Shown one piece after another: positions 2,774-48,696 of a stretch of DNA of 64,000 bases. Both the position numbers and the translations under genes were made by a program. Source of the stretch: Saccharobesus litoralis (GTDB lineage: Bacteria; Pseudomonadota; Gammaproteobacteria; Enterobacterales; Alteromonadaceae); assembly GCF_003063625.1 (NCBI RefSeq), contig NZ_CP026604.1, positions 2,704,065 through 2,768,064 of the forward strand, given 5' to 3'. Within the stretch, counting starts at the first letter, position 1. The number at the start of each line of letters is the position of its first letter. Under the pieces are notes generated by a model. It ran no database searches. It was not told where the DNA came from and worked only from the letters and a program-made list of their open reading frames with translations.

Positions 2774-2922
2774 GTATTAATCCTTATTGGCAGCACAAGT
2801 TAATTATTAGTTGAATATAGGTTAAATATATTATGTAAAGATACGCAAGAGTGTTAAAAGTTAATCGGATCTCTATGCAATAATATCGGCGTTTATGGTT
2901 TTGGGTGTTAAATTGAAATAGC

Positions 2923-5408: not shown

Positions 5409-5468
5409 ACTAAGCTTGTAATTGGTGAGTAAGCATTCGTTTACTCGCCAATAAAAGTGCTTGAGCAC

Positions 5469-6038
5469 TTAAAAATAGTAGTAATAGCTCGCTCCAATAT
5501 GCGAACCATCAATGGTTAAATAGCCATTGCCTATTTCATATTCAATTGAGGTGTAGCGAAATGTTACGTCTTGATGATAGTCAATTGAATAAGCCCCTTC
5601 TAATACTAAACCTGTCGCTGTATCTAATCGGGTTGTTCCACCACTATGGTTAAACTCTTCTTCATATTCTGGCGATATGTGTCGTGTAAAACCAGCAAAG
5701 GCAGTCCAATTTTCATTAAATTGATAGCCAGCTAACGCATCAAAAGTAATACGGTCAAACGTGATGTCGGCATTGGTCGCTGTTGCTGAATCAAAGTGAT
5801 AAGCTAAATTGGCCTTGTAGCGAAAGCCGACTTCTTCATCGAGTTGGTTAGTTAGCGAACCGCCAAAAACAAGTAAACCACCTGCTTTTACTGTCGCGGT
5901 ATCACCATTTTCGTAACGTAATCCACCGAGATCGTCACCACCGTAGGTTAAGCCAGCGTACACGCCAAACTTTAGGTCAGCTAATGCCGGTGTTGAGAAC
6001 AAGCTTGCAGCAAGAGCGAAGCCGATTAATCTTTTCAT
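5469..6038 (-). CDS. Outer-membrane beta-barrel protein (OmpW/OmpA-like porin family)
   Basis: Signal peptide ...STPALA. Alternating beta-strand pattern. C-terminal aromatic F. Confidence 0.6.
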   Translation of the reverse strand: MKRLIGFALAASLFSTPALADLKFGVYAGLTYGGDDLGGLRYENGDTATVKAGGLLVFGGSLTNQLDEEVGFRYKANLAYHFDSATATNADITFDRITFDALAGYQFNENWTAFAGFTRHISPEYEEEFNHSGGTTRLDTATGLVLEGAYSIDYHQDVTFRYTSIEYEIGNGYLTIDGSHIGASYYYYF

Positions 6039-6121
6039 ATGCCATCCTTATGTTTTATATATTCCAGAAAAATCAGCCAGCACTGTAACAATCTTGTTAT
6101 AAGAACGCGAGCATTATCACT

Positions 6122-9024: not shown

Positions 9025-9222
9025 AAACATTTCATAATGTGAAATACAGTCTTGCTAATATATCACTTAACGCAAAACTAAAGATAGTGTAGAGTGCCCA
9101 GCATCCCAAATTAGACTCAAATTTTTGTTTAATTTGGCTGAGTTTTTACAGAAAGATTTTATTACTGATCTGGCAGTGTGCGATATGTCGGATTAATTAA
9201 CATTACTTTGATAGGAATTATC

Positions 9223-25545: not shown

Positions 25546-28500
25546 TTACTTATCGGCCTTTGGTGAACCCATCCAAGCTCGGCCTAAAGCACGCATCGCT
25601 TTGCCTATTTCGTTAATTGGCTCAACTAAATCTGTGCCATTACCACTAAGGTTTTTCTGAATATCACCTAAGGTTTGTGCCACGGCAGCGAGTTGATTAG
25701 CCATTTGCTGCTTAGGATCGGATTCATCACCTAAAGCTTGTTTACGGTTATAGCGGCTACAAATTAATTGCCAACGTTCCTGTTCGGTTTCGCTCATTTG
25801 TCCGCGTAACTGCGCTAGCTTTAATAGGTTTTCCTCCGCGCCCGAGGTTAGGGTTTGCGCCTCACCAACATAGTGATCACCAATTAAACGCATCAGTTCG
25901 TCATGGTTCATTACCGACGAGACTTTTTCCGCCATCTTGTTCATATTTCGGTATGAACCTTGAAGCTTAAATGGCGGCTCGGTGCGGTACTCTTCCGCGG
26001 TAGCGGCTGACTCAATATATTGCAGGTTAACTTTCAAGATCACTTCCTGAATGGCTAGCATATGTTTAAGGACAGAAACTATCTCGTTTACTTCGGCACC
26101 ACTGTAATCATGGCTTAAGTCGGTGCTGGCGATTTCCGCACCTTGTGCCATATCGACAAACTTATATACGTCATCCATATCGCGTAGCGCTAATGGCGCT
26201 AGCACAGGATTCGAGGTTAAGCTGTTTTCGATATAACTCAGGGCGAACTGCTTTTCTTTACCGCCCAATACGTCACCTAAGTTGTAGATATCGGCACGGT
26301 TGGCAAGCATGTCCGGTACTTTAAATACGTCACCCGATTCTGTGTATGGGTTACCCGCCATACAAACACAGAACTTCTTGCCACGCATATCATAGGTTTT
26401 GCTTTGGCCTTGCCAAATACCTTCAATACGGCGCGTACCGTCACACAGCGAGATAAACTTCTGCAAAAACTCTGGGTGAGTATGCTGAATATCATCTAAA
26501 TACAGCATGACATTGCTACCCATCTCTAAGCCTAGGTTAAGTTTTTCTAGCTCTTGGGCGGCAGTCGCATTTGGTGCTTGGTTTGGATCCAGTGAGGTGA
26601 CATCATGACCTAACGACGGGCAGTTTATTTTCATAAACACCAAACCAAGGCGATTAGCCACATATTCCATTAAGGTAGTTTTACCGTAACCTGGCGGTGA
26701 AATAAGTAACAACAAGCCCATTAAATCGGTACGTTTGTTATCACCTACTGTACCCATCTGCTTGGCGAGGTTGTCGCCAATAATATGCAAATAGACATCG
26801 TTGATAAGCTTGTTACGCACGAACGAACTAAGCGGATTGGCTTTAAAGGCTTCTAACTGCAGTTCAGAACGATAGCGTTCGACCAACTCGTGTCTTAGCT
26901 CATGATAGCGATTAAAGTTAGCAACGTCTTGCAGACTAAATTCGGCTAAGCGTTGGCTAAATTCATCCAGAGTTAGTGCTAAGGTGCCGCTTTCAACTCG
27001 CTTATGATCACTTAATAAGCCTTGTACCTGAGCATCAAGTTGTACCTGAGTCACGGTTCGTGGCAGTGATTGGCAGATCAAGATAGCCGCCGCTTCGGTC
27101 AAATAATGTTGGCTCGCAGCCGAACCTTCAGTTTCGCTAGTTGCTTGTTTTGTGACAAAAGCGCTGAGCCAAGACAAACATAACTGCCATTGTTCTTTAA
27201 GACCACTAATGCTGTTTGCTGTCGTTTGAACTTTTTTCGACTTTAAACGGGTTTGTTCTATTAACTCGGCAAACTGAGTCATGGCAGTGACATAGTCTTT
27301 GTGATGACCGATCTGCTGCAAATATTCAACAAACTGATTAGCCAGTTGCTGACCGGCTTGGCTTTGCTCAAGGTTTAATTCAGGCTTAGCTAGCTCTAAA
27401 CTAAGGTAATTAGCGGCATCTAAACACAGCTTTTTGTTTAAGCTGCTGTCATCGGCTAAACCGAAGGCCAAGCTAAAGGCTTGCAAGGCGCTGTTTAGCT
27501 CTGAAATTAACTGTTCAAAACCTTGGCGACTGCCAAGCGATTCTGCCAACAATGCGGCGCTTTGTGCGTGACGTTGCCAAATAGTTTGCTTGGCTTGTAC
27601 TTGTGCATCGAATTGCAAAAATAGTGCGGCTAAGGCTCGACAATCGGCATTAAAGCGCAATAGGCCTGCTTGCTGGTGAATCGGTAATAACGCAGATAAG
27701 ATCTTCACCGCATCATTGTCATGAATACCTTTTTCGTAACCTTCTTGGTAACGCGGCGCGATAAATTTACGTACCACATCGACCAATTTATCTTGCTCAG
27801 CAACCCAGCCGTACAAGTCTTTTAAGCAGTAACCATGTACTTGCTGTTCGGCATCTTGAATGATTTGATAAGCCAAATACTCGGCGCGACAGACTTTGTC
27901 GTTTTCCGATACCAGATTTTGCTGCCAGTACGGCTTTAGTTCTGTAATTTCTGGTTCGTTAACCGCTTCAAAATAGTCAGTACCCGTTAGATGCTTAACC
28001 ATTTTGCCTTCACGCGGTAATAAGGTGAGATCCAAGACTTGTGAGTTTACACTAAACTTGTGCTTACCTAGCTTGATCACCGAACCGCCATCTTCAAAGA
28101 TATCTTGCTTATCGCGCAGGCTACGAATGGCTTGTTCTTTGGCGGCTTTTACCTTGGCTTCAATATCGTCAGCTTTAACTTGATCATCTAAATCACGTAG
28201 TTGCTGAGTCAGTTCACCGAGTTTAAGCACCATAGGATCAGAGGCAAAATAGGTATTTAACTGATCGGTATCTTGGAAACTGCTAGCACGACGGTTAACC
28301 CCGCTGATAATCCGCTCGGCGGCACTTTGCAGGTTTTGAGCGCGACGCTGACGTTCTTCCAATAAGGTTTGTTTACGACTTTCAAACGCGTCGTGTAACT
28401 CTTCACGCTTGGTTAGAATATCGGATAAGAACTGATCGTACTCACTGAATTTAGATTCTAGTTCTTCTAATTGCACTAACAGGCGAGATAGCTGTTCGTC

Positions 28501-30687
28501 GGCCTTTTCTGGCGTATCCGCCATGGCTAACGCACTATTAATGCTTTGTCCGAACAAACGGAATTGTGCGGCAAACTCAGCAACAGCTTCGCCTGAACCC
28601 AAGTCTTTTTGACGATTACGGCCAAGCGCTTTAACTTGGTTAAGCTGGGCGTAGATCTCGGATATATCATCTAAGATCTGGGTGCGTACCGTGGCATCTT
28701 CGACTTTTAAGGTATTAAGGATCTCGGTTAATAGATCTAAGCCTGCGGATAATTCAGCTAGCTTGTCGTTAAGTGGTTTCAGTTCTACCACTAATTCGAC
28801 GTGTTCTATTTTGTCTTTTAGTTCGCTGATCTGCGTATCGTATGGGGCTAGCGCTTTATCACCGGCTAAAAAGGTGACCGTAGCTTGGCTAACTTCGTCA
28901 TAACGTTCGGCGACTTCATCATCAAGCTGCTGCAAACGTGTGGTATTGATATAGCGTTGTTCTTTTAAGCTAATCAAATGACCACGCTGTTGGCGCAATT
29001 CGTTTAGGCAGGCCACATATTCTTCGGGTAGTTTCCAATCTGGAATGCGAATACTGCTGATGATGGCTTGCTGTTTTTCTTCTGCTTCGCTTAAGGCTTT
29101 TTGCGCTTGGTTACGAATTTGCTCAACTTTAACAAACTCGTCGATCACTAGATCGGCATTGCCACTTATTTCGCGAACTGTATTGCCGATACCCGCCAGT
29201 TCTTCGTCATCTAACCAGTAAAACGCATCAAATAATGATTTACTGTTAGCGATTAAATCTTCATACAAGCGGCGACTTGGATTCGGATCTTGGATCATGC
29301 GATGTAAGCTGGTTAGCTCACTAATACCACGCACTAACTCTTTGTTGCCGATACGACTGTAAAAAGTATCTTTACTCGGCTGTTTAGCGGCAAACTCTTG
29401 GCTGAAGTAGGGGGTATTCCACACTTGCATTGGATGCACGCGAGTTGGCTCTTCTTCGGCACTAAAGATCAGCGCTTGGCCATCTTCATATAAACAGTAA
29501 CCATGACCGTAAATTGGGTTTTGCAGCTCTTTACGGATCAGGTTATACGAGAATAAACCGACTAAACCTTCTTCTGGCTCGTAGAATACGAACAAGACAT
29601 CTTCGCCATTTGGTGAGCGGATCGCTCGTTTAAATGCCAGCCCTTCAATTTGATCAGGGAAAGATTTGGTTTCACCATTTTGCAGGTAGTAACCACCCGG
29701 GAAAATAATACCGTGATCTTCAGGTAACGAAATACACGCGGAGCCAATTGCATCAATACGATTGACTTGATTGTTGCGGGTATTAAACACCAAATAGCGG
29801 ATCTGCTTTTCCCGATAGGGTTGGATCTTTAATAAGATCAAGCTACCGACTTCGGCGTAATGGATCTGGGCGTCGGCTAAGCTTTGGGTTTTATCTTCGA
29901 CAGGTTCACGATAAATGCCTTGGCCATCTTCGGTATTGTCTTCAACCTTGATGGTCAGGTCGCCACCCACAGTTTCAACAAATACTTTATCCAGAATACT
30001 GATATGTGGATGCTTACCGGATACATGGTCTTCACGCGATACGGCTTGCCATTCAAAGTCATGCGACGCCGACTTTTTGATTGCCCGCTCACCACGGTTA
30101 TCGATATAAGTGGCAGTACCATCTTTATTGATTTGCCACTGGAAGACGCGAATATCGGTAACTTGGCGGCCAATTTGGAAAATGGCAAATAGTTGCTCGC
30201 CTTGCACCTTTAATTGGATCAAGCGCGAGCTTTTGTAGTAGATATAAAGCTCTTGGAATTCTTGCTGGAATTTTGCATCGGCTAAAAAGGTACCGTCGAT
30301 AGGTACATCTTGAATATCCACTTTCTGTTGTTGTGAAGAGCTATCGTCGGCATTACTAAGCTTGTATAAGCTAAATACATCGCTGACTTGGGTTTCTTTT
30401 TTAAGACCAATAAAGACGTTGTAACCAAATAATAATAAGTCGCCAACTCGAACAATATCGCGTGCTACACAGTTGTTTTCGGTACGCACTCGAATACGGC
30501 TAGCCACTTCCAGTGGAGCTTGACCAAACTCGTCGATACGCGCTTGGTTTAAAGCATCAACTTGGTTTTTCAGCTGTTGCGCTTGTTCGTTAAGACGTGC
30601 GCAGATCACTTCATAAGCGCCACCTTGGGTGACAGCTGAATCTAAAACGCTTTCTTCAAGGTTTTCGATTGAATTAGGTTCTGACAT
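25546..30687 (-). CDS. Giant (1713 aa) coiled-coil protein with a C-proximal AAA+ (MoxR/AAA_5-like) ATPase domain. It is the last gene of an NfeD-flotillin operon.
   Basis: Walker A ISPPGYGKTT (nt about 26685-26711). Walker B MLYLDDIQH. Long heptad-rich central region. Confidence 0.6.
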   Translation of the reverse strand: MSEPNSIENLEESVLDSAVTQGGAYEVICARLNEQAQQLKNQVDALNQARIDEFGQAPLEVASRIRVRTENNCVARDIVRVGDLLLFGYNVFIGLKKETQVSDVFSLYKLSNADDSSSQQQKVDIQDVPIDGTFLADAKFQQEFQELYIYYKSSRLIQLKVQGEQLFAIFQIGRQVTDIRVFQWQINKDGTATYIDNRGERAIKKSASHDFEWQAVSREDHVSGKHPHISILDKVFVETVGGDLTIKVEDNTEDGQGIYREPVEDKTQSLADAQIHYAEVGSLILLKIQPYREKQIRYLVFNTRNNQVNRIDAIGSACISLPEDHGIIFPGGYYLQNGETKSFPDQIEGLAFKRAIRSPNGEDVLFVFYEPEEGLVGLFSYNLIRKELQNPIYGHGYCLYEDGQALIFSAEEEPTRVHPMQVWNTPYFSQEFAAKQPSKDTFYSRIGNKELVRGISELTSLHRMIQDPNPSRRLYEDLIANSKSLFDAFYWLDDEELAGIGNTVREISGNADLVIDEFVKVEQIRNQAQKALSEAEEKQQAIISSIRIPDWKLPEEYVACLNELRQQRGHLISLKEQRYINTTRLQQLDDEVAERYDEVSQATVTFLAGDKALAPYDTQISELKDKIEHVELVVELKPLNDKLAELSAGLDLLTEILNTLKVEDATVRTQILDDISEIYAQLNQVKALGRNRQKDLGSGEAVAEFAAQFRLFGQSINSALAMADTPEKADEQLSRLLVQLEELESKFSEYDQFLSDILTKREELHDAFESRKQTLLEERQRRAQNLQSAAERIISGVNRRASSFQDTDQLNTYFASDPMVLKLGELTQQLRDLDDQVKADDIEAKVKAAKEQAIRSLRDKQDIFEDGGSVIKLGKHKFSVNSQVLDLTLLPREGKMVKHLTGTDYFEAVNEPEITELKPYWQQNLVSENDKVCRAEYLAYQIIQDAEQQVHGYCLKDLYGWVAEQDKLVDVVRKFIAPRYQEGYEKGIHDNDAVKILSALLPIHQQAGLLRFNADCRALAALFLQFDAQVQAKQTIWQRHAQSAALLAESLGSRQGFEQLISELNSALQAFSLAFGLADDSSLNKKLCLDAANYLSLELAKPELNLEQSQAGQQLANQFVEYLQQIGHHKDYVTAMTQFAELIEQTRLKSKKVQTTANSISGLKEQWQLCLSWLSAFVTKQATSETEGSAASQHYLTEAAAILICQSLPRTVTQVQLDAQVQGLLSDHKRVESGTLALTLDEFSQRLAEFSLQDVANFNRYHELRHELVERYRSELQLEAFKANPLSSFVRNKLINDVYLHIIGDNLAKQMGTVGDNKRTDLMGLLLLISPPGYGKTTLMEYVANRLGLVFMKINCPSLGHDVTSLDPNQAPNATAAQELEKLNLGLEMGSNVMLYLDDIQHTHPEFLQKFISLCDGTRRIEGIWQGQSKTYDMRGKKFCVCMAGNPYTESGDVFKVPDMLANRADIYNLGDVLGGKEKQFALSYIENSLTSNPVLAPLALRDMDDVYKFVDMAQGAEIASTDLSHDYSGAEVNEIVSVLKHMLAIQEVILKVNLQYIESAATAEEYRTEPPFKLQGSYRNMNKMAEKVSSVMNHDELMRLIGDHYVGEAQTLTSGAEENLLKLAQLRGQMSETEQERWQLICSRYNRKQALGDESDPKQQMANQLAAVAQTLGDIQKNLSGNGTDLVEPINEIGKAMRALGRAWMGSPKADK

Positions 30688-30699
30688 AAATACAGACTC

Positions 30700-30995
30700 T
30701 TGCTAAATTCATTATGTTTGTGGGCGAGCATTGTCGAGATAAATCTCGACCTACAAGGTTATTTGTAGGTGCGTTCGACAAGGGGAGGTACCTACTAAAT
30801 CAGCTAATTAGCTTAATGGCTTGGCTGTTTATTGTAGGTTCGACGCTGGCGTCGTATTTGAAACGATGACGAAGCAGCAGCTTCGACCTACAAAGGATTT
30901 AGCAAACTATTTAATTTAAATAAGCACCCAAAGGGTTATTTATAACCCTTGTCGAGGCGCCAAAAGTAGGCGCCTTAAGCAAGCCTCGACCTACA
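30700..30995. repeat. Cluster of REP-like palindromes between the giant ATPase gene and the flotillin gene
   Basis: Multiple …tcgacctacaa / ttgtaggtcga… units. Confidence 0.75.
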
Positions 30996-30998
30996 ACT

Positions 30999-33002
30999 TT
31001 ACTTTTTACCCGCTACCGCTGATGAAATAAGGTTCATTAGCTCTGGGTTTTTATCTGCGTTTTGCAGGAATTTAGCAATTAATGCTGTGGTGGCGGTGTC
31101 TTTGATTTCACCAGAGGCACTACCAAAACCCGCGACTAGTTCTTTGGCGTCTTCCACAAAGCTGGCATCGCCGTTGAAATGGTCTTTAAAGGCTGTGGTT
31201 AAGGTATGGCTTTTATTAATGGTTCCGTCAATTGATTTACCCACAGATAACGATTTAACAAAGCTGTCGAAATAAGCGGTATCGCCACCTACAATATCGA
31301 TATTGGCTTGCTTAAGTGCTTCGGCCAGTACAACAGCTTGTTCTTTAGCAATGCCGACATTGGCTTCGATAGACTGCAATACTTGCTCATGCTGCTTGTC
31401 TAGCTTCATGCGGAATTCTTCGTGTTCACGCTGCTGCTCAGACATAGTTGCCATGGCTTCAAATTTCTTAGTCATACCTTCCGCCTCGGCAGCGGCTTTC
31501 TCAGCAAGTACCTTAGCGTTTGCTAACCCTGTTTTCTCAACTGCATCGGCTTGAGCTTCGGTTACGCGAACCTCTGCCATACCTTCTTTTTCAGAGGCAA
31601 TGGCTTTGGCTTCCATGACTTTGGCTTGCGCTAAACCTTCTGCCGCTTTAAGGGCTTCTAAACCTTCGGCTTCGCGTTTTTGGGCTAAGGCGTTTTTCTC
31701 TGCCACTTCTAGCTTAGCTTGAGCAAGCATGGTTTTCTCTTTAGCGGTGAATTCAGCTGATTTCTCGGCCGCTTGTGCTGCTTTGATTTCGCGTACTAAG
31801 TCTTGCTCGGCTTTGGCTTCTGCTTCAATGATTTGCGCTTGTTTTTGACGATCGGCTTCTGATACTACACGAAGTTCTTTAATTTCTTCTTCACGTTGTG
31901 CCACAGTCTTATCAACTTCTACGCGGCTACGCACCACTTCGGCAATCTCGCGTTTCTCGTGTTCGATCAATTTTTCGTTGGCAATTTTTTGTAGCGAGGT
32001 TTCTTTTTCGCGCTCAATTCTTTCAAGTTCGCGCGCTTTAATCACACGCTCTTCTTCAATTGCCACAGCGCGTTGTTTGTTGTTTTCAGCCACTTCAACT
32101 TCACGCTGTTTGTTTTGCTCTTGCACTTCAAGCTCTTGTTCAGCTTGTACACGAGCTTGTTCCGCTTTTAGTTTTTCTTCGTGCTTAACCCGTTCGGTTT
32201 CTGCTTGTTCACGTGCTTGAACGGTTTCAACTTCACGTTTTTGCTTAGCTTCAGCATCGGCTTGTTGACGTTCAAGTTCTAAAATAGCTTCGCGGGTTTC
32301 AACGTCTTTGCGCTTGATCTTCATTTCTTCTTCGCGCTGGAATATATTAGTTTGAATGTTTTGCTCTGCGGTTAATTCGGTGATCTTACGAATACCTTGT
32401 GAATCCAAGATATTGTCTGGATCTAGCTTGTTGATTGGAGTTTGTTCAAGGTAGTCGATGGCGGCATCTTCTAAAACATAACCGTTTAAGTCAGTACCAA
32501 TGTTATCGATAATCATGTCGCGGAAGTTATCGCGTTTGGCATAAAGGTCGATAAAGTCGAGTGATTTACCTACGGTTTTTAACGCTTCTGAGAATTTAGC
32601 GTTAAACAAATCTTCAAGCGTTGCTTGGTTAGACGCGCGTTCACAACCTATGGCTTGAGCAACTTTTAATACATCGTCGCGGTTTTTGTTAACGCGTACG
32701 AAGAATGCCACTTTAATATCGGCGCGAATATTATCTTTACAGATCAAACCATCGGTACCGTTACGGTCGATTTCGATAGTTTTTAATGAGATATCCATGA
32801 TTTCCATTTTATGGAAAACCGGCACAACCACTGAACCAGTGAAGGTTACTTTAGGTTCAGAGCGCATGGTATTAACGATCATAGCTTTACCTTGTTCAAC
32901 CTTACGGTAGAGGCTTGCTAAGAAAAAGATAATACCTAATCCAAATACAAATACACCGACTGCCAGTGCAACCCAGAATTCCCAACCGTTGCTTAATTCC
33001 AT
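30999..33002 (-). CDS. yqiK: Flotillin-like SPFH/band-7 protein (YqiK family) with long coiled-coil tail
   Basis: N-terminal TM, then SPFH domain, then E/K/A/Q-rich coiled coil. 667 aa. Confidence 0.8.
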   Translation of the reverse strand: MELSNGWEFWVALAVGVFVFGLGIIFFLASLYRKVEQGKAMIVNTMRSEPKVTFTGSVVVPVFHKMEIMDISLKTIEIDRNGTDGLICKDNIRADIKVAFFVRVNKNRDDVLKVAQAIGCERASNQATLEDLFNAKFSEALKTVGKSLDFIDLYAKRDNFRDMIIDNIGTDLNGYVLEDAAIDYLEQTPINKLDPDNILDSQGIRKITELTAEQNIQTNIFQREEEMKIKRKDVETREAILELERQQADAEAKQKREVETVQAREQAETERVKHEEKLKAEQARVQAEQELEVQEQNKQREVEVAENNKQRAVAIEEERVIKARELERIEREKETSLQKIANEKLIEHEKREIAEVVRSRVEVDKTVAQREEEIKELRVVSEADRQKQAQIIEAEAKAEQDLVREIKAAQAAEKSAEFTAKEKTMLAQAKLEVAEKNALAQKREAEGLEALKAAEGLAQAKVMEAKAIASEKEGMAEVRVTEAQADAVEKTGLANAKVLAEKAAAEAEGMTKKFEAMATMSEQQREHEEFRMKLDKQHEQVLQSIEANVGIAKEQAVVLAEALKQANIDIVGGDTAYFDSFVKSLSVGKSIDGTINKSHTLTTAFKDHFNGDASFVEDAKELVAGFGSASGEIKDTATTALIAKFLQNADKNPELMNLISSAVAGKK

Positions 33003-33226
33003 ATAAAACTCCTTCGCTTACATTAATTTTTGGTTGTTTTGTTAGTCATTGAAGCTAGAGCTTCAATCCGGTGGCTTTAAGAGGAATAAGCTGACGAGTT
33101 TGACTGTTGATAATCCGCTTATTTTAATAAAGTCACTAGATACCAGCTTTCGCTGGTATGACCATATTTTTTAATCCTTTGCGTATTAGTTGTTCAATTT
33201 TTTTCTAATACGCTTTGACTATACTT

Positions 33227-33871
33227 TTACTGATTTAATAATTGTTGTTCGGTCACAACAAGGTAGGTGTCCTTGTTGTTGTCATAACTAATTAACGCCA
33301 CGCGCTCGCCTTTGCTTATAGTGTTTGGCTCATCGGCTCTAACACTTAACACCATGGAGCCATCTTCGGTTATGGCTTGGCCAAAGCTTTCTGTCACTTT
33401 TAACGTTGTTACGGTACAAATGGTGCCTGTAATATCACATTTGCTAACCGCTTCATGGGTATGAAAGAAGCGGCGCAGTGGTTTAACACTGAGCGTGGTT
33501 AATGGTAAAGCAATTACAACTGCAGCCATGGCTAATAAGCTGCCCATAGCTGTTGCGGTTAGCATTTCATCTGCTAACGGCATTAGATACTTACGCCCCA
33601 AGTAAGCAAAAATTAAGGCGTAAAAATCGATTAGGGTTATGACTACCATCAAAGGTACGCCATCTAACCCCAACTTTTGTAACCATGAGGTTTGGCCTGA
33701 CTCAGCATCAGTATCGACTTCGATATCTGGATCAATAATTTCGATATCGACTAAACCTAAAAATGATACCAACCAAAAAAGTAGCAATATGACGAATAGG
33801 GTAGAGAAAATATTGAGAGGGAAGCTAAATACTTCGTTTAAAAACATGTCCGTCATCATAGATAAGTGCAC
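33227..33871 (-). CDS. yqiJ: NfeD-like membrane protein (YqiJ family)
   Basis: Three TM helices followed by an OB-fold-like C-terminus. Sits upstream of the flotillin gene, as in yqiJK. Confidence 0.65.
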   Translation of the reverse strand: MHLSMMTDMFLNEVFSFPLNIFSTLFVILLLFWLVSFLGLVDIEIIDPDIEVDTDAESGQTSWLQKLGLDGVPLMVVITLIDFYALIFAYLGRKYLMPLADEMLTATAMGSLLAMAAVVIALPLTTLSVKPLRRFFHTHEAVSKCDITGTICTVTTLKVTESFGQAITEDGSMVLSVRADEPNTISKGERVALISYDNNKDTYLVVTEQQLLNQ

Positions 33872-35591: not shown

Positions 35592-36392
35592 CTACGACAT
35601 TTGATTCGCCAAACATCTACCTAGCAAAGCAAAATATTCACTAAAATACCTTCCCACTTCGACTCTATGTTCGTCTAACGGGTACAGCCCAACCTTAGCT
35701 TCATCAGACTGTTTTGTGCCTTTAACCAGAAACTCGTTACTTAATCGACTGTCTTGAATATAAGCCTCAAACGCTCTGGCACACATCTCTTCTGGTAAGG
35801 CGTAGTAAACCTGATTAAGTTGTTTATCTACTTGTGCGGCGACTTGAAAATAACGACTCGATTTATGCTTTTTACTCGCATCTAAGAAAATATGCGAGAA
35901 AGCTTTTTGCAAAGCTTGGTTTAAAGGGTGATCGATCTTTTCTTCACCTAATAACCAAGCATGCGATGCAAATTTGGATTTAGGCAACTGCAAGAACTTA
36001 CTACAGATATAGTGATCAAAAGCATGGAACCATTCATGTGCTAAAGCGCCGCCACCGGCATTTTTAGCCAAGGCTAATTCTTTGGTGCCGACATTATAGT
36101 GCGCCATATTGTGGCGTTGGCCACCAGTACCAAAAGCTAAAGACAGGGTACTGCGTAGGGAAATCACTTGCCTAGGCACTTGCAGAATTAGCGCGAGATC
36201 CGCCAAGGCATCAAAAATAAGATTGGCGGCGATTTGTTGTTCTTGTTTGGTTACCCATTTGCCTAATCGAATACAGCGAAAACCAAACTCTTGGCGAATA
36301 TCGGTAAAGCTAACATCTTGGTCTTGCCTATGATTAGGGCCTGTACGGTAATAACCGCGTTTAAGCCGGTTGGTTTTAGCAGGTTGTTGCAA
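35592..36392 (-). CDS. Hypothetical protein with an HExxH (HEWFH) zincin-like motif
   Basis: …ALAHEWFHAFDHY…. Confidence 0.4.
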   Translation of the reverse strand: MQQPAKTNRLKRGYYRTGPNHRQDQDVSFTDIRQEFGFRCIRLGKWVTKQEQQIAANLIFDALADLALILQVPRQVISLRSTLSLAFGTGGQRHNMAHYNVGTKELALAKNAGGGALAHEWFHAFDHYICSKFLQLPKSKFASHAWLLGEEKIDHPLNQALQKAFSHIFLDASKKHKSSRYFQVAAQVDKQLNQVYYALPEEMCARAFEAYIQDSRLSNEFLVKGTKQSDEAKVGLYPLDEHRVEVGRYFSEYFALLGRCLANQMS

Positions 36393-39982: not shown

Positions 39983-40798
39983 TTATTTTTCTTGTGGTTT
40001 AGGCAAGATTGCAAGTTCGCCGGGCATCATAATCTGATAAGGATGAGTTAAGTTTATTCGCCAGCGACCTTTATGGTGGTACGGCTTGCCTTTAACAATA
40101 GCCTTACCTCCAACCCAAGAGCGATTTAATTCGTATAATCGATGGATGTTGCGTTGGTTTTGCTTAACGCCGATATATAGAGCGCGATTCAGTACAATCC
40201 AGGTTGTATTGTCTTCATCAGTCCAAACATTGCTGATTTGGCCTATGTATTCATGATAGCGTTTTGAGTTTAATGTATGGTCAGCGACAACTTTAGGTTG
40301 CCAAAACTTATCTGTCCAAATACCGCGTTGTGCATTACGTGCTGCCGTTTCATGCTCGCGGTAGCAGCGCCAAAACTTATCATTTTTACCTATGACAATC
40401 TGCTTAGCTAAACCTTTATCCAGCATAGCGGCTTGCAAGTTTTGACCTTTTTCGTTGTGGATATGCGCCAACATACGGTTATACACATCGATTATATCTT
40501 TGTCGTATACCAGTTTTACGGTTTTGCTTGGGCCGATAAGTTGCTCTAGTTGCTGTTTGGCTTGGTGCGCAAACGGTTCTGAATTCTTTGTCGATTTATA
40601 GTCTATTTCAGGGGCATCGATACCAATAAGGCGAATTTTATTGCCATCCTGCAAGCGTATGGTGTCCCCGTCAATAACTTGTTGTACACGTTCAGTTTGT
40701 TCAAAGTTTTTCGGTTGGCATGAATGAGCCGTGGCATAGGTACTTAATAAGCTGAGGCTAAGCGCAATAAATAATGGTTTCACAACTGTCCTTGCCAT
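39983..40798 (-). CDS. Secreted staphylococcal-nuclease (SNase/thermonuclease)-like protein with C-terminal extension
   Basis: Signal peptide. …DGDTIRL…RLIGIDAPE…. Confidence 0.6.
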   Translation of the reverse strand: MARTVVKPLFIALSLSLLSTYATAHSCQPKNFEQTERVQQVIDGDTIRLQDGNKIRLIGIDAPEIDYKSTKNSEPFAHQAKQQLEQLIGPSKTVKLVYDKDIIDVYNRMLAHIHNEKGQNLQAAMLDKGLAKQIVIGKNDKFWRCYREHETAARNAQRGIWTDKFWQPKVVADHTLNSKRYHEYIGQISNVWTDEDNTTWIVLNRALYIGVKQNQRNIHRLYELNRSWVGGKAIVKGKPYHHKGRWRINLTHPYQIMMPGELAILPKPQEK

Positions 40799-41310: not shown

Positions 41311-42000
41311 CTAAGCTACGGATAGTGAAAAGGACGATTGCTGAGGAGAAGAAAATGCTCTAGCAAGATTGTCGTTTGAGGCTGCCGCTGATCTTTTATT
41401 TTTTGAGAAGTTCAATTCGTATTGTTTCACCACACTTTCTAGTTTTGAAGATTTTTCGAAGATATGTAACTTCGTTGTTTGCTCATATTGGTTAGCGATA
41501 CAATCGAGGTTGTGACTCAATAAATATCGATACAAACTAGCTTTTGAATACCCTCTTTGAGCACACCATTGGTCTAATAATATATAGTGCTCATTAAACC
41601 TTTGTATGCAAATGGGGGGGTATTGTGCACTTGCTCTGTTTACTTGTATGCTCTTCCACGAAAATAGTTTCGCCATTGTTCTAATTTTCACGGGCTGAAC
41701 ACAGAAATATTTGCTCAACTCAGATATCGATAGCAAACAATTAAATTTATTCTGCTCGCTTGATTGCAGATGGCGGATTGCTTCTGATTTTTTGACATAA
41801 AAGTTCCCCAGCTTTTTAGAATGCAAAGGCTGATGGAGTTCTACACCTTTTTCGATTAGCAACTTGAAAGCATCACCAAAGCTGTATAAATATTTTTGGC
41901 TGATTGCCTCTAACTCTGTAATTGTTATCACCTCTTCACTGGAGCAAAATCGAAGTGATGGTTTGGTAAGTTTCGTTAGTAGTTGGTCTATATATTCCAA
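41311..42000 (-). CDS. Hypothetical, possibly HTH-containing regulator. Contains a G7 tract (on the + strand).
   Basis: …GYSKASLYRYL… HTH-like segment. Poly-G at 41614-41620 inside the CDS. Confidence 0.35.
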   Translation of the reverse strand: MEYIDQLLTKLTKPSLRFCSSEEVITITELEAISQKYLYSFGDAFKLLIEKGVELHQPLHSKKLGNFYVKKSEAIRHLQSSEQNKFNCLLSISELSKYFCVQPVKIRTMAKLFSWKSIQVNRASAQYPPICIQRFNEHYILLDQWCAQRGYSKASLYRYLLSHNLDCIANQYEQTTKLHIFEKSSKLESVVKQYELNFSKNKRSAAASNDNLARAFSSPQQSSFSLSVA

Positions 42001-42423: not shown

Positions 42424-43587
42424 ATGCAGAATACTTTCCAAAAAACTTACCAAGATGATGATACTGAAGGCCTTAGTCAAAACGATTTGGATTGTCTTAG
42501 AGATAAAATCCTTCGAAGCCATCATGAATTTCGAAGCTCGGTTAAGCAGGGAGATAAAGATTACATCAGGGAATTACACAAATATTCTAAATTTAAACAA
42601 GATGAAAAAATCTTATCTCGCTTAGACACCGACTATAAAAAATTGTCAAAGTATTTTATATGCGCATCAAAATTAGAAGTGGCAAGAATAAAGCCTCGAC
42701 TGATTAATGTAGATGAAAGTAATTTATTTAAACGGCTCTTTAAACTGGTAAGACATTCTTGGTCTATGCCTTATTCAAAAGGGTATGGTCGCCGAATTAG
42801 ATTTATTGTTTGGGATGATTTTCACGACTCTGTTATTGGGATTATAGGTTTACAATCCCCCCCAGCTGATCTAAAAGCAAGAGATCAGCTTTTTGATTAC
42901 CCCGAAAATCAGAAATTACCACTTGTTAATCAAACTCTGGATGTGTACACATTAGGTGCAATCCCCCCGTATTCCAATTTATTGGGGGGGAAGTTGGTCG
43001 CTGGACTTGTAGGAGCTGATGCAATTAGGCAAGTATACTGGTCAAAATATGCTGGAAAGAGATCGCAAATCAATAATGTATTAGTGGAACAACCGCTGGT
43101 TGGTGCTACTACAACTAGTGCTTTTGGGCGTAGTTCGATATACAACAGGCTTAAATATCAAGATAGACTTTTAGCAAGACCAATAGGTTATACTCGAGGA
43201 TATGGGACAATACATTTAGAACCATATTTTGAGGAGCTTACTGGAATACTTAAGGCGCATAACATATACCACAATGGCGGCTATGGAAAAGGGCCAAAGC
43301 CTAAATGGCAAAATGCAGTTAGAGCATTGAAGATATTAGGGCTTAACTCTGAGTATCTGCAGCATGGGCTTGGAAGAGAGGTATTTCTTTTCGAGTTTTT
43401 TGACGATTTAAAAACTGGGATGTCAGGAGGTAGTTTTGGTCGAGCGCTTCTACTAGATTCTGAAGAATACTCGCAATACTGGTTAGAACGATGGGCTGAG
43501 CCTAGAGCTATAAGATACCCTGATTGGAGATGCTTTGATGTAAATGGATACTTCCTTAGTTGCTTTACCTCTAATTACTCGGCTTAG
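42424..43587 (+). CDS. Unknown 387-aa protein with several Gly-rich conserved-looking motifs. Gene 1 of the AT-rich island.
   Basis: GYGRRIRFIVWDD, LGGKLVAGLVGADAIR, GYTRGYGTIHL, NGGYGKGPKPKW. Confidence 0.5.
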   Translation: MQNTFQKTYQDDDTEGLSQNDLDCLRDKILRSHHEFRSSVKQGDKDYIRELHKYSKFKQDEKILSRLDTDYKKLSKYFICASKLEVARIKPRLINVDESNLFKRLFKLVRHSWSMPYSKGYGRRIRFIVWDDFHDSVIGIIGLQSPPADLKARDQLFDYPENQKLPLVNQTLDVYTLGAIPPYSNLLGGKLVAGLVGADAIRQVYWSKYAGKRSQINNVLVEQPLVGATTTSAFGRSSIYNRLKYQDRLLARPIGYTRGYGTIHLEPYFEELTGILKAHNIYHNGGYGKGPKPKWQNAVRALKILGLNSEYLQHGLGREVFLFEFFDDLKTGMSGGSFGRALLLDSEEYSQYWLERWAEPRAIRYPDWRCFDVNGYFLSCFTSNYSA

Positions 43588-43659: not shown

Positions 43660-46326
43660 ATGCGTATCCAAATGTCTGATCGTCTGCGGACATGGCTTAA
43701 AGACTCTCCTATCCTTCCTGAACAATTTACTTTAAAATCAGCATCAGGTAACAGTTCATCTCGATATCAGATCCAGGAAAGGGATGAAAGCGGCAAAGTT
43801 TCTAATGTATCTGGTAGAATTGGTTTTAAGGGTTTTGTTCTTAAAGTTAAAGATATCGATACTCATGCTATATATGCGGCGAAATTTACTATCCCCCAAG
43901 ACTACGATCACAGTCGTGATGAATTTCATGAATCCCGTTTAGCAACCCTACTGCAGCCTGCAAGCAATTTGTTTTCTATTCCTAAATCTTGTGGCAGGGT
44001 GAAGTTTTTTGAGGGAATGCCAAAAGAAGATTGCTTTGATGAATTTGTGTGCTTTATTTCAGATTGGGTAGAGGGAGAAACTTTGGAGTCTTTGTTAAAT
44101 AGAAGAGACGACATAGTTTCACCGTACTTTGCCAGCAAGTTGTCAATTCAATTGAACAAAGCTCTGGGTTTTCTAAATCGAGTTAATTTAAAACATGATG
44201 ACTTGCATTATGGAAATGTAATGGTGTTGACACCGGAACGTGATCTAATATTTGATGATGAAGACAGAGATCAATTAAATATAAAAGTCATAGATACTGG
44301 TAGCTTAAAGCCATATAAACAAGAAAATAGTAAGCCATATGATGATTTACTCCACTACACAAAAATACTAGTCGATATCTTCAACGTCCTTATTAAAAAT
44401 AGAAGAACGGTCTCAAATAACAGGCTTTTTTTCGAACATTTTGAAAGAGTAATAAAGTCCCTAAATTGTGATGATCCTCAGCGATTTTTCCCAAATCTAT
44501 ATGCTGATATTCAAAGTGAACTGAAAAAGCTTGAGCATTACTTGAGTTACCAAGACAGTGAGTTTGAAGAAACTTTCCATCCATTCGATGCTATTTCAGC
44601 TGAACAACTGGCAAGTGATCAAATGCTTTTGGATTTATTTGTAGATAACATCCCATGGATGGATGATGTAACATCTAAGGCTTCAATTGTACTTACCGGT
44701 CCAAGAGGATGTGGTAAATCAATGATGTTACGTTATTTGAGTGTACGTGCTCACCTACATAACCAAACTGGTAATTTAGAGCAAATTCAATCTCTTCCTT
44801 TCTTTGGCGTTTTTGTTAGTTGCGCCACAGAATTACAAAATAGCCTTTCGATTTTCTCAAGAGACAAAAGTGGAGACTTGCTTGATAAATATAGCGATGA
44901 AGTCGTAACTTTTTTTAATATAGTTGTAGCGCGAGAATTATTCAGAAGTATCGCAAGTGTCAAAAAAAATCAGGTAGCAAGTAATTATTTTTGTATTTTA
45001 GATTCGACCGAAGAGGAATTAGTCAACATAACTAAGTCTTATTTGGGAGATGATTGGCTAAGCAGAAGATTTTCAGGGACTCCATTATCTTGGCAAGCTG
45101 CGGAATCTTTAGACAAGCTAAGGCTTAAGCTAAGTGCATCTATGCTAAATGGTACCAAAACCTGTAAAAAGCTACCTGATAACTATTTAGCTGAGCTAAC
45201 ATCTTCATTAAGCAGCAGTTCGAGGTATTTTCGAGTAAATCCAGTTGCCTTTTTATTGGATGATTATACTAGTTATAGGATACCAATAGACGTTCAAAAA
45301 TTAATCAATAAAATTGTCTTTGAAAGAAGAGCTTCACACATATTTAAAATTTCTTGTGAAAAATACGGCTTTTCTCCCAAAGACAACAGCAATATCCGTA
45401 TTGAAGCAGACCGTGAATTTCATGAAATTGACGCTGGAGCACATTTACTAAGTGCGCTTGGGTTAGCTGAAACCACTTCTGCTAAACGCAGAAAAGATGC
45501 TCAACATTTTATTGAGAATCTAATTGATCGCCGTTTACGTATGGCAAAGTGGTCGGGCACAACAAAATCACTAATCGGTAAAAGTGATTATGACACATAT
45601 ATATCTGTTGCTAGGGCTATACATGCTAACAAAGGTGTCAAAAATGAAAGTATTTATCATGGGTTAGAGGTGTTGGCCGACATTTGGAGCGGTGATATTG
45701 CAACAATCTTGCAGGTAGCTAGAACGATGTTTTCTTTAGCGCAAGTCAAGAAAGTTACGACAAAACAAATTTCTAAAGCAGTACAACATCGATCCATTGT
45801 AAATATATCTAGGTCTTACTTGGAGAGAATTGAAGCTTTTCACCCTAATGGACCTGAGTTACAAGAGGTCGTAAGAAATTTTGGTGCGACTGTCACCAAC
45901 CTGCTTATTCATGGAGATCTTGTTAACAAAAAAAGCAAATCGATTAACCCAAGAATGGTTCCTAGGATTGAAATGACTTTGGACTTTGGGGATGATTTAA
46001 TGCTGCAGTTGAAAGAGCAAAACCCGTTAGCGGCGCAAGTTGCGAAGGAGTTATTGAGGAGAGCTATATTCATTGAATTAGATCATGGTAGGAGCAAAGA
46101 AAGTAATAAGAAAGGCACACTTAGATGGGAGTTTCGAAGAATATACCTTCCTGGAGCTGGAGCTGCGCTAGGGAAAAATCATTACATTGAAATAAAAACA
46201 GTTAAAGAATTGATAATGCTTCTTACAGATCAAGCTCAGTTTAAGAGCATTATGGATGGTAGGTATCTAAAAAATAAAGGAATGGACGATTTATTCTCAG
46301 AAGAATATGAAACGGAGGATGGTTAA
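43660..46326 (+). CDS. 888-aa fusion protein. N-terminal eukaryotic-like Ser/Thr protein kinase fold, then a P-loop NTPase, then an about 350-aa helical C-terminal region.
   Basis: Gly loop GRIGFKGFV. AxK (YAAK75). Catalytic loop HDDLHYGN (179-186). DTG in VIDTGS (211-216). Walker A GPRGCGKS (347-354). Candidate Walker B FLLDDY (531-536). Confidence 0.65.
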   Translation: MRIQMSDRLRTWLKDSPILPEQFTLKSASGNSSSRYQIQERDESGKVSNVSGRIGFKGFVLKVKDIDTHAIYAAKFTIPQDYDHSRDEFHESRLATLLQPASNLFSIPKSCGRVKFFEGMPKEDCFDEFVCFISDWVEGETLESLLNRRDDIVSPYFASKLSIQLNKALGFLNRVNLKHDDLHYGNVMVLTPERDLIFDDEDRDQLNIKVIDTGSLKPYKQENSKPYDDLLHYTKILVDIFNVLIKNRRTVSNNRLFFEHFERVIKSLNCDDPQRFFPNLYADIQSELKKLEHYLSYQDSEFEETFHPFDAISAEQLASDQMLLDLFVDNIPWMDDVTSKASIVLTGPRGCGKSMMLRYLSVRAHLHNQTGNLEQIQSLPFFGVFVSCATELQNSLSIFSRDKSGDLLDKYSDEVVTFFNIVVARELFRSIASVKKNQVASNYFCILDSTEEELVNITKSYLGDDWLSRRFSGTPLSWQAAESLDKLRLKLSASMLNGTKTCKKLPDNYLAELTSSLSSSSRYFRVNPVAFLLDDYTSYRIPIDVQKLINKIVFERRASHIFKISCEKYGFSPKDNSNIRIEADREFHEIDAGAHLLSALGLAETTSAKRRKDAQHFIENLIDRRLRMAKWSGTTKSLIGKSDYDTYISVARAIHANKGVKNESIYHGLEVLADIWSGDIATILQVARTMFSLAQVKKVTTKQISKAVQHRSIVNISRSYLERIEAFHPNGPELQEVVRNFGATVTNLLIHGDLVNKKSKSINPRMVPRIEMTLDFGDDLMLQLKEQNPLAAQVAKELLRRAIFIELDHGRSKESNKKGTLRWEFRRIYLPGAGAALGKNHYIEIKTVKELIMLLTDQAQFKSIMDGRYLKNKGMDDLFSEEYETEDG

Positions 46327-47508
46327 ATGGTTAGGCGACGTTCGGGTATATTAAATAAATTCTCAGTCAGTGAAGCCTGTATAGACCTTCCTGATATTAC
46401 GCTTTTCAATCATGATAAAATTAAAACCTTTGATTTAGTTATAACTACAGTTGGGTTTGAAGATAGAAGTCTTGCTTTTGTTCAAGAAAGTTGTTCTGAG
46501 TTTCAATGTGAATATGCTTTAGTTGGGAAATATAAAACAAATAAAGTAGAAAATGAGATAAACGAAGCTAGTATAACTAATTTTTTTATGTCCCACTCAA
46601 TCCATACTAGTGAAGTTTGTGCCGATAGTCCGTTAGCTATCAGTAAAAAAATCAATGAAATATTAGACAATATTAGTCAAGAAAAAAAAATCATCCGTTG
46701 TTTCTTTGACATTAGCTCAGCCTCCAATAGATTTATATTGTCCGTGTTGCAAACACTTACAAGTTCAAATCTAGAGTTAGGCTTAAGTATATTTTATGCA
46801 GAGCCGACAGACTACTTCCCCCAAAGCTCAGAATACCATTCAAACCCAGAGGCTTGTATAAGCGAAGCGTTAGCTAGTTCTTCGAAAGAGCCATTAATCG
46901 AAACTGGCGTAAGTGCGGTAAATGAGAATGAATTATACCCTGGACATTTTCCTGAAGTTGGCAAGCCTTTCCTAATATCTATTCCTTCATACCGTATGAC
47001 TAGAATGGGGAGGTGTATCCAGCAAATTGATGAGCAACTTCTTTCTTCTTCAAACAAAGATAGTTGTTTCTGGATATTTGGTGAACCCAAAAAAGAAATT
47101 TTAAAATGGCGTACGATGTACCAAAAAAGTATTGTTGAAAACTATTTGAAGAAATTCACAACCGAAGATTCAGATAGTTATCAGCCTCCCTTAACTGAAG
47201 AAAATAGTAAGCGTTGTTGTACTTTAAACTATAAGGAAATCCTGGCTGCTTTGATTGAGCTGGCAGATAGTAATTTGGGTAAAAGGATAACTATTGTTCC
47301 TATGGGATCAAAGCTTCAGGCTGTTGGGGTGGCATTGGCATTGTACGCTAGAAGCGAATGTTCTGTGCTTCATGCGTCACCAGGAGCATTTAACCCAAAC
47401 CGATACTCCAATGGAATTGGAGACAAATGGCTCTTGGAGTTTGAAAGTATTAGTAACGTTAAACGAATAGTTAGTAAAATTGGCGAGTTAGAGTTAACGC
47501 CCATATAA
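46327..47508 (+). CDS. Unknown 393-aa protein, translationally coupled to the kinase-NTPase gene
   Basis: Start codon immediately follows the upstream stop. No motif I recognise. Confidence 0.45.
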   Translation: MVRRRSGILNKFSVSEACIDLPDITLFNHDKIKTFDLVITTVGFEDRSLAFVQESCSEFQCEYALVGKYKTNKVENEINEASITNFFMSHSIHTSEVCADSPLAISKKINEILDNISQEKKIIRCFFDISSASNRFILSVLQTLTSSNLELGLSIFYAEPTDYFPQSSEYHSNPEACISEALASSSKEPLIETGVSAVNENELYPGHFPEVGKPFLISIPSYRMTRMGRCIQQIDEQLLSSSNKDSCFWIFGEPKKEILKWRTMYQKSIVENYLKKFTTEDSDSYQPPLTEENSKRCCTLNYKEILAALIELADSNLGKRITIVPMGSKLQAVGVALALYARSECSVLHASPGAFNPNRYSNGIGDKWLLEFESISNVKRIVSKIGELELTPI

Positions 47509-47563: not shown

Positions 47564-47977
47564 ATGGAATGCAAAAATCAAACATCGACGCCAAGTACAT
47601 TGATTGACGAAATAGACAAGTCAATTAATAAGTCACTTAAACATGCTAGAAAAAATTACTACTATTCTAGCGTACTTATAGTTACATCAATATTGGCAAG
47701 CTTTTTAACGGCAATAGCTGTTGCTGATGGAACAGAGCTGTTTAGTAAATTTCAGATGGCTTTATTTGCGGCTATTCCTGGAACCGCAATTACACTGTCT
47801 TCAAGAATGAAATTTGAAGAGAAATGTAAATGGTATTATAAGAAGTTTCATGACATAAGCGCATTAAAACGCGATATTGAATATAACAATTTCCCGAAGG
47901 AAGAAGCATCTAAAAAACTATCCTTAATACTGAGCCAAAGTGAAAAACTCTATCCTGGATTTGGCTCTAATGATTAG
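47564..47977 (+). CDS. Small two-TM membrane protein (candidate membrane effector)
   Basis: Hydrophobic helices at aa about 33-56 and 63-80. Charged C-terminal tail. Confidence 0.45.
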   Translation: MECKNQTSTPSTLIDEIDKSINKSLKHARKNYYYSSVLIVTSILASFLTAIAVADGTELFSKFQMALFAAIPGTAITLSSRMKFEEKCKWYYKKFHDISALKRDIEYNNFPKEEASKKLSLILSQSEKLYPGFGSND

Positions 47978-48081: not shown

Positions 48082-48696
48082 TTGAAGTCTTATTTTCCTA
48101 GATTATTAAGCTATACGCGGTTTATTGGGATTGCTTCTAGTGTCGTTGTTCCTATGTGTAGTTACTTAACATCTAAGCTTGGTAAACCAACCGGTATCCA
48201 ATTTGTCGATTCTACAAAAATAGAGGTTTGCCATATTATCAGAGCCAAAAGAAACAAGGTGTTTGAGGGAGTTGCTAGACATGGTAAAGGCACAATGGGA
48301 TGGTCTTTTGGTTTTAAGTTACACTTAGTTATCAATCACTTCGGTGAAATAGTTTCATTGAAACTAACAGAGGGGAACATAGATGATCGCAAACCAGTCC
48401 CTGAAATGACAGAGTCACTATTTGGTAAACTTTATGGTGACAAAGGTTATATTAGCAAAGCGCTATCGGGAGAGTTGCTTGAAAAGGGAGTTGAATTGAT
48501 AACAACAATCCGTAAAAACATGAAGAAAAAATTCATCTCATTATGGGATAGAGCCATACTTAAAAAGCGGTTCATAATAGAAACAGTGAATGACCAATTG
48601 AAAAACATTTCGTACATTGAGCACTCCAGACACCGCAGCGCACATGGCTTTATGCTGAATTTGCTTGGCGGTTTAATCGCATATAGTTTAAAATAA
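48082..48696 (+). pseudogene. IS982-family transposase, 5'-truncated remnant
   Basis: 204 aa starting at TTG. …KGTMGWSFGFKLHLVINHFGEI…GDKGYIS… resembles the IS982 Tnp C-terminal two-thirds. Confidence 0.55.

Follow-up and report, generated by a model that had tools for sequence, protein, structure and literature searches.

A protein that joins a Hanks-type kinase to an ORC/Cdc6-type ATPase, with DruA and a CARF-fold protein as neighbours, as part of a candidate anti-phage or anti-plasmid module in Saccharobesus litoralis

Among the described systems that come closest to the locus analysed here, Pgl/BREX type 2 includes PglW, in which a kinase is joined to winged helices and to a STAND/ORC-like domain that is degenerate, and BrxC, an AAA+ ATPase of the ORC/Cdc6 type (PMC12839542). 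The MADS system, which is encoded by the genes mad1-8, comprises a kinase and a methylase, and its discrimination between self and non-self relies on methylation (bioRxiv 10.1101/2023.03.30.534895). Druantia is described as being built around the DruE helicase (bioRxiv 10.64898/2026.05.12.722862). Here, we analysed a 64,000-nucleotide stretch of the Saccharobesus litoralis genome (NCBI RefSeq assembly GCF_003063625.1, contig NZ_CP026604.1, positions 2,704,065 to 2,768,064 of the forward strand), which is called the window and to which the positions below refer unless another locus is named. The subject of the analysis was a gene at 43660-46326 on the plus strand, whose product is a Hanks-type protein kinase fused to an ORC/Cdc6-type P-loop ATPase. 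Together with a DruA homologue that is encoded upstream and a protein with a tandem CARF fold whose gene abuts it downstream, this protein may form a three-gene, horizontally mobile candidate module against phages or plasmids that combines self-marking with kinase signalling, and we put the probability of this reading at roughly 0.45. The two flanking genes, which had been missed in a preliminary description of the gene that was made from its sequence alone, are the key to the locus.

The likeness to Pgl/BREX type 2 lies in the combination of a Ser/Thr kinase, an AAA+ ATPase of the ORC/Cdc6 clade and a DNA-modifying enzyme, and it is functional only. In contrast to PglW, in which the ATPase-like domain is degenerate, the ATPase of the window is predicted to be active and is fused directly to the kinase; a CARF-fold partner is also present and, in most loci, DruA is found in the place of PglX. 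The locus is not a BREX or Pgl system because no PglZ or Brx proteins were found: PglZ, BrxA, BrxB and BrxL were all missing, and a search of the regions at 36.7-49.8, 13-18 and 25.5-36.4 kb with the Brx and Pgl models gave no matches beyond weak kinase ones. The likeness to MADS is at the level of motifs only, with weak matches to mad6 (kinase, 0.0038) and mad8 (P-loop, 0.0017), and MADS differs in having eight genes, including a specificity subunit, and in lacking both CARF and DruA. DruA is common to the window and Druantia type I (Pfam PF14236, 1e-58; PADLOC DruA, 1.2e-76). The locus is nevertheless not Druantia because DruE, a large helicase of the DEAD/DUF1998-MZB type, as well as DruB, DruC and DruD are absent from the window, in which neither of the two open reading frames (ORFs) longer than 1000 amino acids (aa) had a PADLOC match. 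A Druantia-type helicase was found beside DruA in only one of the 83 non-redundant loci that were compared, which derive from 80 loci of a species-level genome collection and six that were added by exact protein look-up. In this locus (L004, Variovorax sp. MHTC-1), a DruE-like helicase of 1859 aa with DEAD, YjiV_N, Helicase_C and MZB domains (750-7549) stands beside DruA and the module. A Druantia variant with DruE was considered and rejected; the large proteins encoded in the neighbourhoods were TmtA, which lies beside L038, a methylase-helicase and others without matches.

On the signalling side, the module resembles RtcR and the CARF effectors of the type III CRISPR systems (Csm6, Can1, Cam1 and Cad1), in which CARF is coupled to an AAA+ domain (RtcR) or to an effector enzyme. 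It differs in that the AAA+ domain here is of the ORC/Cdc6 type and not of the sigma-54 type, the proposed output is a protein kinase and there is no cyclase; neither cas genes nor a CRISPR array were found in the window. Stk2 and PD-T4-6 share a Hanks-type kinase as the likely output enzyme, with weak PD-T4-6 matches (6.5e-4), but they are stand-alone kinases without an AAA+ ATPase, a CARF partner or DruA. According to the preliminary description, Stk2, PglW and TerY-P have other partner genes than this locus, which agrees well with the finding of DruA and a CARF-fold protein in these positions.

The gene starts with ATG and encodes 888 aa, in which a kinase, an AAA+ ATPase and a winged-helix part follow one another; the product is 100% identical to the hypothetical protein C2869_09675 of S. 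litoralis. All of the motifs that had been listed earlier were located at their residues, namely the Gly-rich loop G52-R-I-G55-F-K-G58-F-V60, A73-A-K75, E91, the catalytic loop H179-D-D181-L-H-Y-G-N186 and D212-T-G214 in the kinase, and the Walker A motif G347-PRGCGK-S354 and FLLDDY (531-536) in the ATPase. In 34 full-length homologues (31-42% identity), G55, A73, K75, H179, D181, N186, D212 and G214 were invariant, as were the whole Walker A motif (347-354) and D534/D535. A set of 75 homologues that were taken from the genome loci, with identity down to ~23%, gave a similar picture: the kinase residues K75, E91, H179, D181, N186, D212 and D229 and the ATPase residues K353, S354, D534, D535, R585 and R625 were kept in 74-75 of the 75, with R585, R625, the Walker A motif and the Walker B DD invariant in all of them. 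In the same set, the conservation of G55, K75, E91, D181, N186 and D212 extended to all clades, again in 74-75 of the homologues. The motifs of both halves are beyond chance because they are conserved across the 34 and the 75 homologues, and the fusion of a kinase to a P-loop nucleoside triphosphatase (NTPase) that was proposed in the preliminary description is genuine on both sides. Judging by these residues, both the kinase and the ATPase look catalytically competent.

The kinase domain occupies aa ~50-296 (43807-44547, plus strand). Though the match to the Pfam Pkinase profile PF00069 (residues 55-224, E-value 1.7e-6, 28.1 bits) stayed under the gathering score of 31.7, a profile of the family matched more than 1,000 kinases in the PDB (best 4e-9). 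Many of the homologues carry precomputed PF00069 matches. An AlphaFold model that was built from the family alignment (predicted local distance difference test, pLDDT, 85.9; predicted template modelling score, pTM, 0.82) has a bilobal kinase fold, and kinases dominated the matches when the full-length model was used for fold searches, in which a single AAA+ match surfaced. The activation segment is short, as no more than ~15 residues separate the DTG motif (212-214) from D229, the alphaF Asp that is invariant, and an APE motif is not evident; the domain is therefore taken to be a compact kinase of the Hanks type, with a sequence that does not point to a particular class of substrate. Based on the alignments and the model, it is predicted to be structurally complete, with strongly conserved catalytic residues.

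The AAA+ core of the ORC/Cdc6-like type lies at aa ~321-600 (44620-45459, plus strand), with the Walker A motif at nucleotides 44698-44721 and the Walker B motif at 45250-45264. The Pfam family PF24389 (ORC-CDC6-like) matched residues 308-645 with an E-value of 6.8e-39 and 134.5 bits against a cut-off of 27. In the model, a strand at 343-346 leads into the Walker A motif and is followed by a second strand (382-387), an all-helical insertion of ~140 aa (388-526; 44821-45237, plus strand; DSSP of the model), a strand at 529-534 that ends in the invariant DD, a strand at 560-565, R585 and a strand at 588-591. Beyond the core, the lid helices (607-693, with R625) are followed by a winged-helix-like region of helices and strands that reaches ~845; lid and winged-helix-like region together correspond to aa ~607-870 (45478-46269, plus strand). 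The helical insert after strand 2, the C-terminal lid and the winged-helix-like region are those of an ORC/Cdc6-like ATPase, and the ORC/Cdc6 clade carries a helical insert at the same position (PMC12839542). In the alignments of the homologues, the insertion is poorly conserved. The Walker A and Walker B motifs are ~180 aa apart because this insertion separates them. Two candidates for the Walker B motif had been named in the preliminary description, and they fared differently: in FLLDDY, a predicted strand ends in the invariant DD, and on this basis it is assigned as the true Walker B, while FCILDSTEE (~445) was discarded as it sits in the variable helical insertion. R585 is a candidate arginine finger and R625 a candidate sensor-2 residue, with both roles assigned from position only. 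A STAND/NACHT NTPase was also considered and rejected, as NACHT (E 0.098, 12.9 bits against 26.7) and AAA_16 (17.9 bits against 32.6) remained below their cut-offs; the matches to NACHT and other P-loop families were confined to the Walker A motif. When the PDB was searched with a profile of the ATPase half, the matches were limited to P-loops.

The gene downstream (46327-47508, plus strand) encodes the obligate partner, a tandem Rossmann-like CARF-fold protein of 393 aa, and its ATG directly abuts the stop codon of the kinase gene. A partner of ~350-430 aa was found downstream of the kinase-ATPase gene and on the same strand in 78 of the 83 loci; the five others each end less than 1 kb past the kinase gene, so that no informative locus (78 of 78) lacks the partner. 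Overlap between the two genes was observed in 47 loci, and a gap of 25 bp or less in a further 24. Natural fusions of ~1220-1244 aa also occur (P0244, P0270 and P0284), and the C-terminus of P0244 (residues 888-1211) aligns with the partner of the window (1e-16). The same family is represented by the PADLOC entry CARF6--CARF_STK_AAA (PDLC01925; 1187 positions), which was matched by the kinase-ATPase of the window over positions 128-719 (1.5e-38) and by the partner over positions 867-1002 (2.3e-9). The window differs from this entry in that the CARF part is a separate gene, and the pair is a split form of the natural kinase-AAA-CARF fusions with its parts in the order of the model. A different division was observed on a Bradyrhizobium plasmid (L087, NZ_CP088025.1, 3939-8954), on which genes for a methyltransferase, a kinase of 246 aa, an ATPase of 652 aa, a partner of 366 aa and ThyX follow one another and the first four overlap. 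Such fusion and fission of the kinase, ATPase and partner is strong evidence that they function together as a unit. The CARF-fold protein is obligate, being translationally coupled in most genomes and fused or differently split in others.

The partner has no Pfam match and no recognisable effector domain. It matched the CARF6 models of PADLOC with E-values down to 3e-11, and its AlphaFold model (pLDDT 92.3, pTM 0.93) consists of two Rossmann-like halves. In a Foldseek search of the PDB, almost all of the top matches were CARF proteins, i.e., Csm6, Cam1, SiRe_0806, Cad1, Can1, Csa3, ring nucleases, Can2 and Card1, with probabilities of 0.97-1.00 and E-values of 3e-4 to 1e-2. Each half has one invariant loop that follows a strand, FDISxxS (127-133) in the first and MGSKxQ (326-331) in the second, and we take these to be placed where CARF domains bear their ligand-binding loops. 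The name of the PADLOC entry presumably goes back to the CARF census of Makarova et al. 2020.

The first gene of the operon (42424-43587, plus strand) encodes the DruA homologue of 387 aa, which belongs to DUF4338, a domain that was described as GNAT-like by Aravind's group (PMC10853773). A search of the PDB with a profile of the DruA alignment gave no match. For the comparison of neighbourhoods, all of the ORFs within 6 kb of the kinase gene were clustered into families. Of the 83 loci, 52 have a DruA gene no more than ~5 kb from the kinase gene, upstream or downstream of it and on either strand. In ten loci without DruA, a protein of ~325 aa (family F5) is encoded directly upstream, with matches to the Pfam models DruA (5e-20 to 5e-27) and Mom (6e-5), the latter being the family of the DNA-adenine modification enzyme of phage Mu; a comparison of F5 with DruA by hhalign gave a probability of 92%. 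In another 14 loci, family F4, an amino-methyltransferase of the SPPY type with the motifs DPFxGxGT and TSPPYM, lies immediately upstream on the same strand and is translationally coupled. What occupies the third slot depends on the clade: in most loci it is DruA, but one clade has a short DruA/Mom-like protein there and another has an SPPY amino-methyltransferase. That three different enzymes of the nucleic-acid-modification type fill this slot is the main reason for favouring a modification arm. In Druantia, type II reportedly carries the methylase DruM in the place of the DruA-D of type I (Doron et al. 2018), which would be a parallel swap.

Two other families were observed beside the module. 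A ThyX-type thymidylate synthase adjoins it in five unrelated loci (L021, L026, L036, L058 and L087, in the last at 9037-9960 of the Bradyrhizobium plasmid), and its recurrence hints at nucleotide or base modification chemistry. In the Pseudomonas/Xanthomonadales clade, a protein of ~390 aa (family F3) is encoded between the partner and DruA (L001, 11758-12933, and 16 other loci). F3 may be a fourth component in this clade; it had no Pfam, PADLOC or PDB match, and the hhalign probabilities, which did not exceed 0.2%, led us to reject paralogy with the partner or with DruA.

Relatives of the kinase-ATPase were found in 124 of 185,579 species genomes (~0.07%), and a search of 1.84 billion representatives gave 406 clusters at E<=1e-30, which is consistent with the earlier remark that this layout is rare. 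Their spread is patchy and covers at least a dozen bacterial phyla as well as methanogenic archaea and Bathyarchaeota, and Pseudomonas aeruginosa is included. No relatives were detected in 50,697 phage records, and a single distant, split relative was detected in 72,556 plasmids. In L005, L008 and L011, the module is carried as cargo by Tn7-like elements. The module of P. aeruginosa adjoins genes for HigB-type toxins and a filamentous prophage. In L005 (7153-7980) and L011 (a 315-aa ORF), multi-transmembrane proteins of 275-315 aa are encoded directly upstream of the kinase gene, both within the Tn7-like elements, and they matched the CBASS-type '4TM Effector' of PADLOC (1.8e-14). Membrane effectors were considered as a core part of the module and were rejected, since transmembrane proteins flank only a few of the loci.

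In the proposed mechanism, DruA, or the methyltransferase that replaces it, would chemically mark the DNA of the host. The AAA+/winged-helix part and the CARF-fold partner would act as an ATP-dependent switch, which might assemble on foreign or unmarked nucleic acid, or else on a nucleotide-type infection signal that is held by the CARF fold. Assembly would bring the kinase domains together and so activate them, and the phosphorylation of host or phage proteins would then block the infection. By analogy, we infer the same logic as in Pgl/BREX type 2 and MADS, i.e., a kinase combined with an ORC-like ATPase and a methylase. A role in defence, which the preliminary description had considered, remains plausible in view of the links to DruA, methyltransferases and the CARF fold and of the defence genes in the neighbourhoods.

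Several observations weigh against the reading of the module as a self-marking kinase system. In the literature that was searched, there is no experiment on any member of the family and, to our knowledge, DNA modification by DruA has been shown nowhere so far. None of the three modification-type genes was present within 6 kb in seven of the 75 full-length loci, and DruA is not strictly operonic, as its gene often lies at a distance of a few kb or has the opposite orientation. The assignment of the partner to CARF rests on the modest E-values of the fold search given above and on the PADLOC profile, and no family of cyclases or other synthases of CARF ligands recurs among the neighbours of the loci. 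Neither an APE motif nor a long activation loop could be recognised in the sequence or the model of the kinase domain, and neither a nuclease nor a phosphatase is found among the genes of the module core. Finally, the neighbourhood evidence comes from a random sample of 145 neighbouring ORFs, which included restriction-modification (R-M) enzymes, BrxD, AbiEii, SoFic and PDC candidates, and this is a raw tally without a background rate.

A narrower form of the self-marking reading can also be formulated, in which DruA would mark the host DNA as a DNA-base acyltransferase similar to Mom and would be interchangeable with an amino-methyltransferase, and the kinase-AAA+/CARF complex would be a novel type of reader for the mark, which signals by protein phosphorylation instead of cutting DNA. 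We consider this version doubtful. If it were true, epigenetic immunity would gain a fourth class with this module, next to R-M, BREX/Pgl and DISARM, and the DruA of Druantia type I would be given its first function.

The main rival explanation is a CARF-gated abortive-infection kinase without epigenetic self-marking, which we regard as a serious possibility, if on balance an unlikely one. According to it, the partner would bind a small nucleotide or an RNA-end signal that arises in the course of infection, as the CARF domain of RtcR does, the AAA+ domain would oligomerise and the kinase would be switched on; many host proteins would then be phosphorylated and the cell arrested, as with Stk2, and DruA or the methyltransferase would regulate the system, restrain it like an antitoxin or simply be an independent neighbour. 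The CARF-fold partner, which in some genomes is fused to the kinase-ATPase, fits this explanation well, as do two enzymes that look active by their conserved residues in a core without a nuclease, and the fact that DruA often belongs to another transcription unit. A few loci have membrane proteins next to the module, such as the SLATT-like ORF in the window and the 4TM 'Effector' of L005 and L011, but their occurrence is sporadic. The explanation is further weakened by the lack of a conserved cyclase or other signal-producing enzyme nearby and by the third slot, which is filled by three enzymes of the nucleic-acid-modification type and not by random neighbours.

A role outside immunity, i.e., a module for the maintenance, replication control or signalling of a mobile element, or a housekeeping regulator, appears improbable. 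In this case, initiation or partition would be controlled by a DNA-binding ATPase of the ORC/Cdc6-like type, and the state would be passed on by the kinase. ORC/Cdc6-type ATPases with winged helices are the replication initiators of archaea, the module rides on Tn7-like elements and islands, and direct evidence for defence is lacking, all of which can be counted in favour of this role. It is, however, difficult to reconcile with the near absence from plasmids and the absence from phage records, with the patchy presence in ~0.07% of species, and with the linkage of DruA, methyltransferases and CARF, which are hallmarks of defence loci, and the neighbouring defence genes. The reading that was offered in the preliminary description, a stand-alone kinase joined to an NTPase of the ABC/OLD type with a separate helical sensor domain, is already contradicted and can be given hardly any weight. 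The spacing of the Walker motifs is unusual for AAA+ proteins and a weak match to ABC_tran exists (E 0.095), but this match reached 13.7 bits against a cut-off of 25 and covered only residues 339-372, the PDB matches to ABC proteins spanned just ~25 residues of the Walker A motif, and the ABC likeness was thus confined to the P-loop; the signature motif, Q-loop and H-loop of ABC proteins were not found. The PF24389 match, the helical insertion that explains the spacing and the obligate partner gene all speak against this reading, and the ~350-aa region that had been read as a helical sensor domain is in fact the AAA+ lid and the winged-helix-like region. On the whole, the reading that combines self-marking with kinase signalling is the one that we prefer.

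The protein is not new as a sequence family because its family is already catalogued in Pfam (PF24389), by NCBI ("ORC-CDC6 family AAA ATPase") and in PADLOC (the CARF6 model). No function is attached to the PADLOC entry, and a link of it to DruA or a methyltransferase is absent from the literature that was searched; no description of the three-gene module, of the association with DruA or of the interchange of DruA with a methyltransferase was found there. What makes it of interest is that a compact module, dispersed among bacteria and archaea, unites a Hanks kinase with an AAA+ ATPase of the ORC/Cdc6 type and a CARF fold, each of which is known separately from immunity, and that it is tied to DruA and bears on the role of DruA in Druantia. 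The interchange of DruA with a methyltransferase provides a concrete, testable hypothesis on the function of DruA, and a CARF fold that is coupled to a kinase outside of CRISPR would widen the view of CARF signalling. Automated tools would call an "incomplete Druantia" here, and such loci have therefore probably been overlooked.

In the window, the module lies in an island of low guanine-cytosine (GC) content (0.35-0.37 at ~40.5-49 kb compared to 0.42-0.44 outside), which contains a 229-aa ORF, DruA, the kinase-ATPase, the partner, a SLATT-like ORF and a truncated IS982 transposase. The 229-aa ORF (41311-42000, minus strand) is divergent from the operon and has no family matches. The SLATT-like ORF (47564-47977, plus strand) encodes 137 aa with two hydrophobic transmembrane helices and matched the NCBIfam model SLATT_1 at 1.7e-4 (Pfam, 0.05); it may be a locally acquired membrane effector that was added to the module copy of this genome only. 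At the right edge of the island lies the remnant of an IS982 transposase that is truncated at its N-terminus (48082-48696, plus strand; NCBIfam IS982, 3.6e-70, profile positions 34-241 of 243). Just outside the island, a protein like staphylococcal nuclease (SNase) is encoded at 39983-40798 on the minus strand (SNase, 2.6e-20; PADLOC C3a212 'SNc+LTD', 4e-15). A SNase gene also adjoins the module in L005, and neither BLAST nor jackhmmer linked it to that of the window. The SLATT-like ORF, the 229-aa ORF and the SNase were rejected as parts of the module because no counterpart of them was conserved in the 86 other loci. No tRNA and no array-like tandem repeats were found in the window, and no Rfam family was found in the island.

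Elsewhere in the window, a search of PADLOC with the remaining large ORFs gave no matches. These include an uncharacterised block of three genes (25546-33871, minus strand), in which a 1713-aa protein that carries an AAA domain, DUF7902 and DUF3686 ('ATPase involved in DNA repair', 2e-202) is followed by ORFs of 667 and 214 aa that lack Pfam and PADLOC matches. The protein of 266 aa that is encoded at 35592-36392 on the minus strand has an LPD1 domain (large polyvalent-protein-associated domain 1, 2e-25), which is typical of the polyvalent proteins of mobile elements.

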